Shown here piece by piece: positions 2,572 to 43,107 of a DNA stretch of 45,366 bases; the first letter of the stretch is position 1; every line of letters starts with the position of its first letter. Origin of the DNA: Candidatus Moraniibacteriota bacterium (GTDB lineage: Bacteria; Patescibacteriota; Minisyncoccia; Moranbacterales; UBA1568); contig JAGOBM010000007.1 in assembly GCA_017983435.1 (NCBI GenBank), positions 1 to 45,366 of the forward strand. Reading direction: 5' to 3'. The notes beneath the pieces were generated by a model that ran no database searches, was not told the origin of the DNA, and saw only the letters and a list, made by a program, of their open reading frames with translations. The position numbers and the translations under genes are program-made.

Positions 2572-4308
2572 CTATTTTTTCTCCTGTATTTCTTGAGTCA
2601 GCAGCGTGATGAGATCAGTCAGCTTCAGTGCACCGATCTGGCCAGCGGCCCGGCTTTCGATGGAGAGTGTACCCTCTTCCATTTCTTTGTCACCGACGAC
2701 GACGAGGTAGGGGAGCTTGCCGACCTTGGCGTTGCGGATACGCTTGCCGAGCGATTCGCTTGAGGCATCGACAGAGACGCGCAGACCGGCCTGGGTGAGA
2801 TCGCGAGCGACCGTAGCGGCGTATTCCTGGTGGCGTTCGCCGATCGGGAGGATGCGGACCTGTTCCGGAGCCAGCCAGAGCGGGAAGTGACCGGCGGTGT
2901 GTTCGATGAGGATAGAGAGGAACCGATCGATCGACCCCATGATAGCGGCGTGGATCATGACGATACGCTCGTGCGCACCCTCTTCATTCACACAAGTGAG
3001 GTCGAAGCGTTCCGGCATGTTCATATCGAGCTGGATGGTAGCGACCTGCCATTCCCGACCGAGAGCATCCTGGGCCATGAAGTCGAGCTTCGGTCCGTAG
3101 AAAGCGGCTTCGCCGATGCCTTCAAAAGAATCGGCCTGCTTTTCGCGGGCGATACCCTCGAGTATCTCTTCCGCGGCCGACCAGAGGGCGGCGTCACCGA
3201 GATATTCTTCCGGGGTGGATGGATCGTGTTTCGAGATACGGACGCGCAGCATGAAGCCGAAGGAACCGTAGAAAGTATGGACGATGTCCCATACCTTGAG
3301 AAATTCCTCTCTGACCTGCGACATGCGGCAGAAGACATGCGCGTCATCTTGGGCAAATGAGCGGACACGGGCAAGACCGGAGAGCTCGCCGGACTGTTCA
3401 TCGCGGTAGCACATGGTCGTGTTGGCGTAGCGCTGCGGCAGGTCACGATAGCTCCACTGGCGACGGGCGTAGATCTGCGTGTGATGCGGGCAATTCATTG
3501 GCTTCATGGCGAACTCGTGACCCTCGCGGGTCGTGACGCGGAAGAGTTCATCTTTGAATTTGTCCCAGTGGCCGCTCGTGATGTAGAGATCTTTCTTGGT
3601 GATGTGAGGGATCTCGACGCGCTCATAGCCAGCGGCCCGGCGGAGCTGCCAGACATAGTCGTCGAGCGCCATGCGGAGCGCTGTGCCTCTCGGGGTCCAG
3701 AGCGGGAGTCCGGAGCCGACGAGCTCGGAGAAGGTGAAGAGGTCGAGCTCGACACCGAGCCTCTTGTGATCGCGCTTCTTGGCCTCCTCGATCTGGTGGA
3801 TATGGGCTTCGAGGGCTGCTTTGTGTGCGAAAGCATAGCCGTAGATACGGGTGAGCATCTTTTTGGTCTCATCTCCGCGCCAATAGGCACCGGCAACTCG
3901 GGTCAGTTTGAAAGCATCCGGACGCATGAGGGCGATGTCTTCGGCGTGTCCGCCACGGCAGAGGTCTTCGAAATCGCCGGAGCGATAGAGTGTGATAGCC
4001 TCTCCTTTCCCGACGATCTCATCGATGAGCTCGAGCTTGTAGGGATTCCGAGCGAAGAGGGCGCGGGCTTCAGACTCGCTGACCTCGCGGCCGCTGAAAT
4101 CCTTCCAGGTCTTGAGGATGATGCGCATTTCTTTCTCGATTGCCTTGAGATGTTCATCTCCGATCGGGGTGGTGAAATCGAAATCATAGTAAAAGCCATC
4201 ATCGATAGCCGGACCGATGGTGAGCTTGGTATCCGGATAGAGCCGGAGGACAGCAGCAGCCAAGAGATGGGCAAATGAGTGGCGGATAACCGGAAGTGAC
4301 TCTGACAT
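2572..4308 (-). CDS. thrS: Threonine--tRNA ligase lacking the N-terminal TGS domain
   Basis: The editing-domain motif HSFAHLLAAAV comes near the N-terminus, followed by the class II catalytic core and anticodon-binding domain. I place the start at the ATG at 4308 (MSESLPVIRH) rather than the 4404 ORF start. Confidence 0.93.
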   Translation of the reverse strand: MSESLPVIRHSFAHLLAAAVLRLYPDTKLTIGPAIDDGFYYDFDFTTPIGDEHLKAIEKEMRIILKTWKDFSGREVSESEARALFARNPYKLELIDEIVGKGEAITLYRSGDFEDLCRGGHAEDIALMRPDAFKLTRVAGAYWRGDETKKMLTRIYGYAFAHKAALEAHIHQIEEAKKRDHKRLGVELDLFTFSELVGSGLPLWTPRGTALRMALDDYVWQLRRAAGYERVEIPHITKKDLYITSGHWDKFKDELFRVTTREGHEFAMKPMNCPHHTQIYARRQWSYRDLPQRYANTTMCYRDEQSGELSGLARVRSFAQDDAHVFCRMSQVREEFLKVWDIVHTFYGSFGFMLRVRISKHDPSTPEEYLGDAALWSAAEEILEGIAREKQADSFEGIGEAAFYGPKLDFMAQDALGREWQVATIQLDMNMPERFDLTCVNEEGAHERIVMIHAAIMGSIDRFLSILIEHTAGHFPLWLAPEQVRILPIGERHQEYAATVARDLTQAGLRVSVDASSESLGKRIRNAKVGKLPYLVVVGDKEMEEGTLSIESRAAGQIGALKLTDLITLLTQEIQEKK

Positions 4309-4388
4309 AGATGCGGAGATTAAGGATTTTGAAGAGTGGATCAGTATAGGGATAGTAGCCCGGGAGAGCTGAGGAAAGCAAGTGATAC

Positions 4389-4417
4389 TTGACTTTTTAC
4401 TCAAAAAGTGCTATACT
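4389..4417 (+). promoter_or_regulatory. Sigma70-like promoter (TTGACT-17-TATACT) with an internal 7-4-7 palindrome
   Basis: TTGACT at 4389-4394 and TATACT at 4412-4417. The palindrome ACTTTTT(4392-4398)/AAAAAGT(4403-4409) lies in the spacer. Confidence 0.5.
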
Positions 4418-4423
4418 TTTATT

Positions 4424-4613
4424 ACTCAGTTCATGCAGTTTTTTCAGGGGTGGAGCCGGTTCTCTATGGATCCCCGTATCCGTACGAGCGAAGGAGCTCC
4501 TCCAAAGGGAGCGGCAGGTGCTGTTCGGACATCTGTCCGCTTCGGAGTCGCAGCTCGCCCGCTTATTTGCCCTGACGTCCTTGTCGCCCACGCGCGATGA
4601 GGACGTTTTTTTT
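4424..4613 (+). ncRNA. Candidate stand-alone structured RNA (~190 nt), family unknown
   Basis: It lies between a promoter and a plus-strand-only intrinsic terminator (ACGTCCT/AGGACGT 4575-4581/4600-4606 plus T8). The body is GC-rich with several hairpins and no SD-led ORF. Confidence 0.45.
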
Positions 4614-4639
4614 ATATCGAGAAATATGATGGGGAGCGG

Positions 4640-6115
4640 TTACTGCTTCTGCTCCTCGGTAGTCTGGATAGCGATATTGAGATCTTTCTTGAGCTCGAAA
4701 GACTGGGTGTATTCCTTGTCTTTGGTCTTCAGAGTAACGGTGACCGGTATGGTGCCGGTACCGGATTGCTTTTGGATGAGGAGACGGTAATTGTCCGGGG
4801 TGATCGTTTCGGGCAACTCGTATTCGATGCCGGTTTCGAGCTCGCGGCCGATGAGCGCGTCGACTTTGTAGCCGAACACCGTCTTGTTGAGATCGGTCGA
4901 GTCCTGACCGATGACACCGCCGGTATGGCGCCGGGACTGGTCGATGTATTTCGATCCGATCGGAGCGAGGATACGGGTGTAGGTATGGTAGTCGCTAGTG
5001 CGCCAGTCGCCGCGCGTGGCGGTGTGGTTGTAGGTATAGGAGACATTGGCCTTCGGTTTCTCGCCGGTGAAGTCGACGGTGTAGGCGAGCGAGCGCTTCA
5101 TATAGTAGTCGCTCTTGAGGGCACCGAGGTTGGCATCGACGACCATGAGATAGTCGCCCGTCCAGTCAGTCGTGACGCTGCCATCCCAGTGGACACTCTC
5201 CACCAGGGACTGCAGGGTATCATCATGGAAATAGAGCATGATGTCCTTGGTGCGGAGCTCGCTCTGGGCGAATTCGGCGAGCTTGGTGATCTGGTCGAAA
5301 TGATTGAGTTTCTCGATCATCTTGGCGGCGATGAGCTTCATGACGTTCTTGCGATTCTGCTTGTATTCGGCTGGGATATCGATATCTTCGTTCACGAGGA
5401 ATTTCTTCTCGACGGCCTCCTCGAGCGCGAGTGTGCCGTTCTCACTCGTGAAGGTCTTGGTCTCGGAGCTCTTGGCAAATGTGCCGGTAGCGGCATTGTA
5501 GGAGAAAGTCTCGACTGGGACCGTGATCGGACCGGTCAGCTCGAGCGCGTGGTTGAAGACATCAGCGTTGACGGCGATGACAGCGTCGAACTTCTCCCGA
5601 CCACCGCCGAGGCGATAGAAATATTCGGCCTTTTCTGCGTTGTAGGGGAAGTCCGGTGAGAAATTGGAATCATGGAGGAGCCAGCGCTTGGCTTGGGCGT
5701 AGCGCTGGAGCGGCCACGGTGGCGTGACCTTGATATTGGCGTCCTTGATGCGCTGATCGAGGAGATTGGCATCTTCGACGACCGCAGAGATGATTTCGGC
5801 ATTTTTCACTTTGACGACTGCGTACTGGCCGAGGAAGCCGCCGCCCGGGCGAAGCTCGTGGTTGTTCTGGAGGAGCACGAGGAAGACGCGGGCTTTGTCA
5901 TCGCGCAGAGTGAGCTCTTGGACCAGACGGTTGACGACCTCGATTTCTTTTTTCGTGTCCGGTTCGATCGGAAGGAGTTTGGAGACTTTTTCGAAGAGAG
6001 CGAGGGAGCCGACGGCGAATTCGGTCTTGTGGGATTTGATGGCCGAAAAACCGATCCAGCCGAGCAGGCCGATGACCGCGAGACTGATAGCGGCGATGAT
6101 GAGTCGTTTGTGCAT
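4640..6115 (-). CDS. DUF4012-domain membrane-anchored protein
   Basis: N-terminal TM helix and the LLQNNHELRPGGGFLGQYAVVKV motif characteristic of DUF4012. Confidence 0.72.
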   Translation of the reverse strand: MHKRLIIAAISLAVIGLLGWIGFSAIKSHKTEFAVGSLALFEKVSKLLPIEPDTKKEIEVVNRLVQELTLRDDKARVFLVLLQNNHELRPGGGFLGQYAVVKVKNAEIISAVVEDANLLDQRIKDANIKVTPPWPLQRYAQAKRWLLHDSNFSPDFPYNAEKAEYFYRLGGGREKFDAVIAVNADVFNHALELTGPITVPVETFSYNAATGTFAKSSETKTFTSENGTLALEEAVEKKFLVNEDIDIPAEYKQNRKNVMKLIAAKMIEKLNHFDQITKLAEFAQSELRTKDIMLYFHDDTLQSLVESVHWDGSVTTDWTGDYLMVVDANLGALKSDYYMKRSLAYTVDFTGEKPKANVSYTYNHTATRGDWRTSDYHTYTRILAPIGSKYIDQSRRHTGGVIGQDSTDLNKTVFGYKVDALIGRELETGIEYELPETITPDNYRLLIQKQSGTGTIPVTVTLKTKDKEYTQSFELKKDLNIAIQTTEEQKQ

Positions 6116-6254: not shown

Positions 6255-6325
6255 GCGGGTATAGTATAGTGGTAATACGTGACCTTCCCAAGGTTAAGCG
6301 ACGGGTTCGATTCCCGTTACCCGCT
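6255..6325 (+). tRNA. tRNA-Gly (anticodon CCC)
   Basis: Hand-folded cloverleaf: acceptor GCGGGTA/TACCCGC, D stem GTAT/ATAC, anticodon stem TGACC/GGTTA with loop TTCCCAA, T arm ACGGG-TTCGATT-CCCGT, discriminator T. No CCA is encoded. Confidence 0.93.
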
Positions 6326-11212: not shown

Positions 11213-11241
11213 TTGACAAAAATGTGAAAAAACGCTACGAT
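11213..11241 (+). promoter_or_regulatory. Sigma70-like promoter (TTGACA-17-TACGAT)
   Basis: TTGACA at 11213-11218 and TACGAT at 11236-11241. Confidence 0.5.
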
Positions 11242-11247
11242 GAGGTG

Positions 11248-11441
11248 TCGTAAAATTGACAAAAAGAAGCGGGATCAGATTTCTGCCCTTAGGGTCCGAG
11301 GGAGGAACCCTCCTACCTCCCAAGGCGTAATCGAAGGGAACGCCGGTTTTCCGGAATACCCTTCGCCTTCAGGGCGGAAATCTGATCAACACTTCGTAAA
11401 CAAACACCGCTCTGACTTCAAAAGTCAGAGCGGTTTTGTTT
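11248..11441 (+). ncRNA. Candidate stand-alone structured RNA (three-way junction, possible pseudoknot), family unknown
   Basis: 17-bp closing helix 11273-11289/11371-11387 with one G-U pair. Internal hairpins AGGGT/ACCCT and AAGGC..GAAGGG..CCGG-TTTT-CCGG..CCCTTC..GCCTT. GGGAGG/CCTCCC are complementary. The terminator is 11407-11441. Confidence 0.5.
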
Positions 11442-41916: not shown

Positions 41917-43107
41917 ATGGCAGAGCAATTTCAGCGGACCAAACCGCACGTGAACGTCGGTACCATCGGTCACGTCGACCACGGAAAGACCACTCTCACA
42001 GCGGCTATCCTCCACGTGCTGTCCCTCAAGGGTCTGGCCAAGGAGAAGGGCGTAGATGAGATCGATAAGGCGCCGGAAGAAAAGGCGCGCGGTATCACAA
42101 TCTCGACTTCGCACTGCGAATATGAGTCGGAGAACCGTCACTATGCGCACGTCGACTGCCCAGGGCACGCTGACTACATCAAGAACATGATTACGGGTGC
42201 TGCCCAGATGGACGGCGCTATCCTCGTGGTGGCTGCTACCGATGGTCCGATGCCGCAGACTCGCGAGCACATCCTGTTGGCTCACCAGGTCGGTGTCCAG
42301 AATATCGTGGTGTTCCTGAACAAGGTAGACATGGTGGATGACGCCGAGCTGATCGACCTCGTCGAGGCCGAAGTCCGCGAGCTCCTCTCCAAGTATGAAT
42401 TCGACGGCGACAATGCTTCGATTATCCGCGGATCCGCTCTCAAGGCTTTCGAAGCCAAGACAGCCGAAGAAGCTGATGCTCAGCCAATCCTCGAGCTCAT
42501 GGCAGCTCTCGACAGCAAGATTCCTGATCCAGTCCGCGATACGGAAAAGCCATTCCTCATGCCGATCGAAGATATCTTCTCGATTGAAGGGCGCGGCACC
42601 GTCGTGACCGGTCGTATCGAGCGCGGTATCGTCAATATCAACGAAGAAGTCGAAATCGTCGGTCTCCGCGACACTGCCAAGACGGTCGTCACCGGAATCG
42701 AAATGTTCAACAAGCAGCTCGATCGCGGTCAGGCTGGCGACAACGCTGGTCTCCTCATCCGCGGTATCAAGAAGGAAGACGTGGAGCGCGGTCAGGTGTT
42801 GTCCAAGCCGGGTTCCATCACTCCTCACACCGAATTCGAGAGCGAGGTCTATATTCTCGCGAAGGAAGAAGGTGGTCGTCATACTCCGTTCTTCAAGGGC
42901 TACAAGCCGCAGTTCTACATCCGCACCACGGATGTGACCGGTGAAGTGACTCTGCCGGAAGGAACCGAGATGGTGATGCCGGGCGATACGGTGAAGCTCG
43001 TCGTGAAGCTCCTCGCCCCAGTCGCTATGGAAGAGGGTATGCGTTTCGCGATTCGCGAAGGTGGCCGCACAGTCGGCGCCGGTGTCGCGACGAAGATCAT
43101 CAAGTAG
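41917..43107 (+). CDS. tuf: Elongation factor Tu
   Basis: [18 protein letters not shown] and DCPGHADY motifs. I prefer the ATG at 41917 (MAEQFQRTK). Confidence 0.97.

Follow-up and report, generated by a model that had tools for sequence, protein, structure and literature searches.

Positions 4,389 to 4,613 of the stretch of DNA analysed here (the window, 45,366 nt), which comes from a 0.79-Mb, nine-contig assembly (G000) belonging to the Moranbacteria of the candidate phyla radiation (CPR), hold an independent promoter-to-terminator unit, a non-coding RNA gene divergent from thrS, as reading of the locus and comparison with related genomes have confirmed at the level of sequence. By the same comparisons the gene is restricted to one genus and lies outside any described RNA family. 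Its product is probably a lineage-specific regulatory RNA, and we infer, with a confidence only a little above even, that it functions as a base-pairing small RNA (sRNA) independent of a chaperone.

Layout and conservation of the RNA gene

The two flanking genes, encoding threonyl-tRNA synthetase and a DUF4012 protein, are co-directional on the minus strand, and the RNA unit lies antisense within their spacer (Table 1). The thrS start codon (4306–4308) is followed by 80 nt up to the −35 hexamer of the RNA gene, and 26 nt separate the DUF4012 stop codon from its T-run. A consensus scan of positions 3800–5200 found a single promoter-like site, with 10 of 12 consensus matches and the additional TG, and this sequence is shown to be that of a strong, near-consensus sigma-70-type promoter with an extended −10; the promoter coordinates originally predicted (TTGACT-17-TATACT, 4389–4417) proved right when the sequence was read back. 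Scanning the same interval for hairpins followed by T-runs bore out the claim that the terminator serves the plus strand only: its hairpin extends from C4576 to G4605, with about 12–14 bp, and is followed by T8, whereas reading of the locus found no T-run for a terminator on the minus strand. The start of the predicted RNA was placed, by inference, 7 nt after the −10 element, and its 3' end within the T8; its body is rich in G+C.

Table 1. Features of the RNA gene, its predicted product and the adjacent genes; positions are those of the window.
Feature	Positions	Strand	Basis and remarks
thrS (threonyl-tRNA synthetase)	2572–4308	−	Divergent; Pfam tRNA-synt_2b, HGTP_anticodon, tRNA_SAD; translation
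−35 hexamer TTGACT	4389–4394	+	Direct reading and consensus scan
Extended −10 TGcTATACT	4409–4417	+	17-nt spacer; TG 4409–4410, TATACT 4412–4417
Predicted RNA, ~185–190 nt	4424–4613	+	Promoter and terminator positions; fold
Alternative closing stem TCAGGG/CCCTGA	4444–4449 with 4570–4575	+	Single-sequence minimum free energy (MFE) fold
Outer stem, 5' arm (GGGU, bulged G, GAGC)	4448–4456	+	Two-sequence consensus; pairs with 4553–4560
Pyrimidine-rich CGGUUCUCU	4457–4465	+	Predicted pairing with purine-rich 4513–4523
CUCCUCC motif in variable middle domain	4497–4503	+	CUCCCUC in G005; resembles short-form C-rich loops
Outer stem, 3' arm (GCUCGCCC)	4553–4560	+	Two-sequence consensus
Intrinsic terminator	4576–4613	+	Hairpin 4576–4587/4594–4605, loop CCACGC, T8 4606–4613
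DUF4012 protein gene	4640–6115	−	Convergent; Pfam PF13196, E = 3.7e-24

The DNA search covered 60 related genomes, and the region upstream of thrS was fetched from 30 genomes. A single clear DNA homologue was found among the 60, in genome G005 of the same genus. Its identity to the window is ~73–80% over the promoter, the opening ~45 nt and the closing ~70 nt with the terminator, while the middle is scarcely alignable and 24 nt longer; relatives of the window's ThrRS protein with 92% (P0003) and 85% (P0004) identity also exist. In five further species of the genus (G004 and G006–G009) the −35 context TTGACTTTTT lies 71–86 nt from thrS in the same orientation as in the window, and the promoter is followed by about 100 nt and a terminator abutting the DUF4012 stop codon. 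A covariance model (R1) built from these five short forms added two members, G001, in which the unit has stayed beside the DUF4012 stop codon while thrS has been relocated, and the metagenome contig L051. The syntenic comparison thus finds that 8 of the 10 species of the genus, and one metagenome contig, have a promoter-to-terminator unit at this position and with this orientation, which supports the stand-alone, non-coding unit divergent from thrS that had been proposed from the window alone. Seven relatives carry the short form (~100 nt), the long form being found in the window and G005 only. TTGACTTTTT is invariant in all seven thrS-linked orthologous loci and also occurs in G001 and L051; the −10 element reads TGcCATAAT in G005 and is represented in the short forms by a conserved TGCTTTTCT.

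Outside the genus, R1 gave no convincing match, whether among the 60 relatives or in an additional sample spread evenly over the family, and within the window's own genome it found no paralogues, the matches on contig C5 being terminator look-alikes. Two loci scoring 33 and 22 bits with R1 (L151, G007:C12:12406–12494, and L152, G004:C63:2524–2624) were rejected as members of the unit, since they are without the R1 promoter and the C-rich loop; both have a hairpin, their terminators and the sequence that follows (CGCCGCGCG...CTGCCGCGGCTTTTTTTTGTCTCACCTACACAAACACGAA) are identical, and judging from this they are probably the conserved 3' end of another gene.

The palindrome formed by ACTTTTT (4392–4398) and AAAAAGT (4403–4409) lies within the promoter spacer, where it had been reported, but its description as operator-like did not stand: it is absent from every orthologue, G005 and the short forms having other spacers, and the operator reading was therefore rejected. 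It is best read as the T-rich and then A-rich spacer of a strong extended −10 promoter. The arrangement TTGACTTTTT...AAAAAGTGCTATAMT, which also occurs upstream of unrelated genes in other genera, is by its distribution promoter architecture; closely similar promoters (TTGACTTTTTATCAAAAAAGTGCTATAAT) stand upstream of unrelated sequences in other genera, and of the four promoters with the TTGACTTTT...TGnTA frame in the window's own genome, the RNA gene's is the only one with the palindrome. A promoter of the type TTGACTTTTGACTCCAAAAGTGCTATAAT was also seen on the minus strand of G044:C14 (L004, ~43029–43055), followed by ~150 nt and a hairpin with T7; judged by its sequence this locus, which belongs to a different family of the order, resembles a further stand-alone sRNA unit.

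Structure of the short and long forms

The short form consists, in order, of a U-rich 5' tail, a GGG/CCC closing stem, a stem of 8–10 bp, a loop, a C-rich linker and the terminator, a structure on which RNAalifold and the model alignment agree. The loop, 17–29 nt in length, is C-rich and CCUCCUCCC-like: G008, for instance, has CCUCCUCCCUCCCC, and G009 a C10 run; the exact CCUCCUCCC is found in the loop of G008 only. In the alignment of the seven sequences, which was fitted to the model itself, 91% of the cells are paired and 12 of the 20 pairs are changed on both sides, including all eight pairs of the main stem; none of 500 shuffles reached the observed values, and slid controls were 39–54% paired. 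Covariation among homologous loci, by which the structured RNA of the original prediction could be checked, is thus seen in the short form, whose stem shows compensatory change in seven relatives. Cells with G-U outnumber those with A-C in the same alignment (9 vs 4), which argues for the plus strand as that of the RNA.

The long form, ~190–210 nt, is known from two sequences only. Its conserved 5' and 3' ends pair together and enclose a fast-evolving middle domain of ~95–120 nt. In the window the RNA is predicted to fold with −76.3 kcal/mol (z = −2.8 against shuffles) and the opposite strand reaches z = −3.3; as both strands fold moderately better than shuffles, energy does not decide the strand, which is set as plus by the promoter, the T-run and the G-U pairs. 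The outer stem retains its eight pairs in both sequences; seven do not vary, and the eighth differs on one side only (C-G to U-G). GCAGCTCGCCC reads the same in the window as in G005. The helix between CGGUUCUCU and its purine-rich partner has nine pairs in both long forms, with one C-G replaced by G-C and three U-G by U-A, the G-U pairs again suiting the plus strand. The terminator keeps 12 of 12 pairs in G005, one of them changed on both sides (U-G to G-C), and the long-form pairing as a whole shows six double-sided changes between the window and G005 (n = 2).

The inner elements described earlier fared less well. The TCAGGG/CCCTGA closing stem is present at the positions reported and occurs in the MFE fold of the window, but its equivalent in G005 (UCGGGG/UCUCGA, compared by eye) is weaker, with one pair missing on both sides and two G-U pairs, and it competes with the outer stem for G4448–4449. 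GCTCC (4496–4500) and GGAGC (4508–4512) are correctly located, as are CGGACA (4526–4531) and TGTCCG (4534–4539), but these inner hairpins are absent from G005, and full pairing of the latter two would leave a sterically impossible 2-nt loop, a realistic hairpin being 4526–4530/4535–4539. The duplicated TTCGGA (at 4524 and 4541) is likewise real in the window, but it is absent from G005 together with its alternative hairpins, so that a conserved switch between alternative folds is unsupported. The internal fold proposed for the window RNA is therefore not conserved in detail, the MFE folds of the window and G005 differing inside, and part of the window's CUCCUCC motif is engaged in pairing in the predicted folds.

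A profile of the short form (nhmmer) found nothing in the window or in G005, local alignments of long against short bodies scored within the range of shuffles (p = 0.05–0.9), and the R1 score on the window RNA was 10.5 bits. Because the bodies show no significant similarity, the claim of a proven expansion from short to long form was given up, and on sequence similarity the two forms can only be called positional equivalents, with slot, orientation, −35 context and end point in common. Two histories would fit, growth and later divergence of the short-form loop or replacement of one RNA by the other; the short form is mildly favoured as ancestral because G001, the most distant member by thrS identity, carries it. 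Since R1 misses the long form, the logic of the C-rich loop may not transfer to the window RNA.

Known RNA families and competing explanations

Searching the whole window against Rfam 15 at gathering score returned only a tRNA at 6255–6325, and at E ≤ 10 the region 4250–4700 gave chance-level snoRNA and miRNA matches only, on either strand, so that even at this permissive threshold no known family accounts for the window RNA. The six short-form loci searched at E ≤ 1 gave no match but one to anti-hemB RNA (RF02837, Burkholderia), which the short form of G008 resembles in having a hairpin and a terminator; with 25.1 bits (E = 0.034) in G008 only of the six loci, against a gathering score of 49.5, and with the window unmatched, membership of this family was rejected. 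The earlier statement that the RNA carries no signature of SRP RNA, tmRNA, RNase P RNA or a T-box is borne out by the lack of any Rfam match; RNase P RNA is encoded elsewhere in the genome (G000:C5:34909–35284). A T-box or other thrS leader was rejected because promoter and terminator lie on the strand opposite to thrS, neither strand has an Rfam match, and G001 retains the RNA without an adjacent thrS. A second candidate promoter-to-terminator RNA in the window, at 11213–11441, yielded nothing meaningful from Rfam at E ≤ 1.

The protein partner of SRP RNA is the M domain of SRP54 (Ffh). Neither SRP RNA (RF00169) nor this domain (PF02978) was detected in any of the 41 genomes of the Moranbacteria order (G000 and 40 others), while the same searches were positive in 13 of 14 and 14 of 14 control genomes, and RNase P RNA was found normally; the signal recognition particle may have been lost or have diverged extremely throughout the order.

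Among the alternative explanations, it is extremely unlikely that the RNA is a very divergent housekeeping RNA missed by Rfam, such as SRP RNA or 6S RNA. Both are undetected genome-wide and ~190 nt is near the length of 6S RNA, but a housekeeping RNA would be expected throughout the order and this one is confined to a single genus, in which the relatives have a ~100-nt form with a C-rich loop and neither a helix 8 capped by GNRA nor a rod with a bubble. The missing SRP54 M domain argues specifically against a hidden SRP RNA, which would have no partner protein, and even sub-threshold matches at E ≤ 10 were not found, either for SRP RNA in the window's own genome (RF00169, RF01854) or for 6S RNA in 4250–4700 (RF00013). 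6S RNA is moreover a broadly distributed rod of ~185 nt with a central bubble, whereas the window RNA has a branched predicted fold, and its genus-restricted equivalents in the slot are ~100 nt. Only slightly less improbable, and still very unlikely, is that the unit is a small-protein gene whose short mRNA encodes the 55-aa product of an ATG frame at 4433–4600 (61 aa, with a GTG start, in G005). This frame is open through the body in both long forms and ends in the 3' arm of the terminator (partly by eye), both conserved ends are read in the same frame in the window and G005, and the net length difference between the two is a multiple of three. Against this, frames of at least 55 codons occur in 23% of dinucleotide shuffles of the transcript, the 5' leader would be 9 nt, the product has no Pfam match, and the start codons of the window and G005 are unaligned, the 5' ends being offset by a 1-nt shift; in the conserved 3' part 3 of 11 differences are synonymous (by eye). 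The short forms keep no frame, the spacings between their anchors falling into all three classes modulo 3. The claim that no ORF preceded by a Shine-Dalgarno (SD) sequence is present holds, the 4433–4600 frame being without one, and a conserved small ORF, which would have spoken against an RNA gene, was not found.

More serious is a local role in the history of the gene pair. A DUF4012 orthologue is present in all 41 related genomes searched, and the family's ancestral order has thrS after DUF4012 on one strand, with a gap of 34 nt in G020. Two loci of genus g5 (L031, G013:C17, and L032, G022:C1) have a sense-strand hairpin with T8 after DUF4012 and a thrS promoter of the TATAAT type, without the antisense RNA unit, whereas no stable hairpin followed by a T-run was found on the sense strand of the seven thrS-linked loci of the genus studied here; because this sense terminator is missing, DUF4012 transcripts may run antisense through the RNA gene to thrS. 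The unit may accordingly act in cis as an antisense or insulator element that replaces the terminator, convergent transcription, or pairing and cleavage, ending the DUF4012 message and uncoupling thrS from it; on this view the sequence of the RNA body would be of little consequence, and its rapid turnover, with wholly different bodies in long and short forms, would be accounted for. In every member the RNA terminator adjoins the stop codon of DUF4012, and this holds even for G001, where thrS is no longer adjacent. Known cis-antisense RNAs and convergent insulators are similar in lying antisense in a spacer, here that of an ancestral pair deprived of its sense terminator, but they have no need of the covarying stem-loop and the loop composition seen here, and the present unit overlaps neither coding region. 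The compensatory change in the stem and the C-rich loop kept in the seven relatives go beyond what a roadblock needs, the long form keeps ~80% identity at its ends, and thrS apparently has its own promoter region beside the RNA promoter (by eye; a scan at threshold found none). We regard this explanation as possible but unlikely; given the arrangement of the locus, an antisense or insulator role in cis is the chief competitor of base pairing in trans, or else a second function of the same RNA. It is considerably less probable that the transcript has no function and that a promoter-like site and a terminator, conserved on other grounds, for example to shield DUF4012 from antisense transcription begun at the divergent thrS promoter region, merely bracket a neutral spacer. 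The fast evolution of the body into two unalignable forms and the target searches, which found no target or partner, speak for this, but the promoter is near consensus and conserved, the short-form stem is upheld by compensatory changes with its loop composition kept, and in the long form the middle drifts between conserved ends.

Two side observations concern the same gene pair. In the ~350-nt DUF4012–thrS spacer of another genus (L030, G015:C31) the antisense strand has a long-range stem, GCCCGCGC...GCGCGGGC, followed by T7, with a pyrimidine-rich CCACCACCUAUUUCCUUCUUCUUUC ahead of the 3' arm; from its sequence, this may be an antisense RNA that occupies the slot but is unrelated to the one in the window. 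In 28 of 41 genomes, including that of the window (G000:C5:88143–88520), DUF4012 has a further, distant paralogue with 30–45% identity over the C-terminal 140 aa.

Proposed base pairing, comparable sRNAs and significance

The preferred explanation, a regulatory RNA that pairs through a pyrimidine-rich seed which is partly masked in the window form, is held with moderate confidence. By analogy with known sRNAs, exposed pyrimidine-rich segments would pair with G-rich sites in mRNAs without the help of a chaperone, neither Hfq nor CsrA having been found in the window's genome; candidates for such exposure are CUCCUCC and GGUUCUCU. For the most part the pyrimidine stretches of the long form are tied up, in the predicted folds, in pairing with purine-rich inserts, and the seed may be masked as a result. 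As the RNA is antisense to any read-through transcript of DUF4012, an effect in cis on that transcript would be inherent in the arrangement.

The choice of targets is less easily pictured. Upstream of 667 ORFs of at least 200 codons (positions −25 to −1, with crude start calls) no purine-rich SD signal is seen, and GGAG or GAGG occurs in only 12% of these regions; the 3' end of 16S rRNA was not found in the G000 assembly. In a genome without visible SD usage, the classical mode of action by blocking SD sequences is doubtful. GGGGAGGGG sites in five relatives were few, lay mostly within coding regions and had no gene start in common, and the window RNA has no long complementarity to any other part of its own genome.

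Two groups of C-rich-loop sRNAs are the closest working models. In the first, 6C RNA, a pair of hairpins have loops that each contain six or more consecutive C. Like the present unit, 6C (RF01066; B11/6C of M. tuberculosis) is a stand-alone gene in its host group, the Actinobacteria, and has C-rich loops; it is chaperone-free, and Hfq and CsrA are missing here too. It differs in having two C-rich loops and a phylum-wide distribution, whereas the short form has one C-rich loop together with a C-rich terminator arm and occurs in one genus, and the long form of the window has no open C-rich loop in its predicted folds; RF01066 did not match the window at E ≤ 10, nor the six short-form loci at E ≤ 1. 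6C acts without Hfq or ProQ through G-C-rich pairing with single-stranded, G-rich sites in mRNAs (PMC6486639). In the 'cuckoo' or CcsR (RSs0680) sRNAs of the Alphaproteobacteria the CCUCCUCCC loop motif is the main constant, carried in each loop of two to four adjacent hairpins with variable stems; members vary in size and structure, with compensatory changes in the stems, and sequence conservation fades beyond the genus (PMC4615179). The likeness lies in the loop, with the exact CCUCCUCCC in G008 and CUCCUCC in the window, but the short form has one motif hairpin and the long form a branched domain where the cuckoo RNAs have two to four hairpins, their phylum is unrelated, the loci described here have no Rfam match to them, and an anti-SD logic is doubtful in a genome without SD usage.

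A more elaborate history can be imagined, although we consider it improbable: an antisense RNA born in the DUF4012–thrS spacer would have replaced the sense terminator, gained a seed acting in trans and later had this seed masked by a domain of ~95 nt. If this were true, the window RNA would be a conditional, sensor-like sRNA, and its family would be one of the first cases, among CPR bacteria lacking Hfq and SD usage, in which a regulatory RNA family is followed from its birth to its later elaboration.

Knowledge of regulatory RNAs in CPR bacteria appears to be scant, and a literature search on small RNAs of CPR or Patescibacteria returned no title or abstract describing such an sRNA family. 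If the role of the RNA is only local, as an insulator, the finding is an ordinary one. The locus nevertheless offers a compact test case, with two very different RNA bodies in one syntenic slot and an outgroup that has a conventional terminator and no RNA gene. A conserved, strongly promoted RNA gene in a reduced genome of ~0.8 Mb suggests that riboregulation is still invested in, and if the RNA acts in trans it would represent a new sRNA family, fit for inclusion in RNA family databases.
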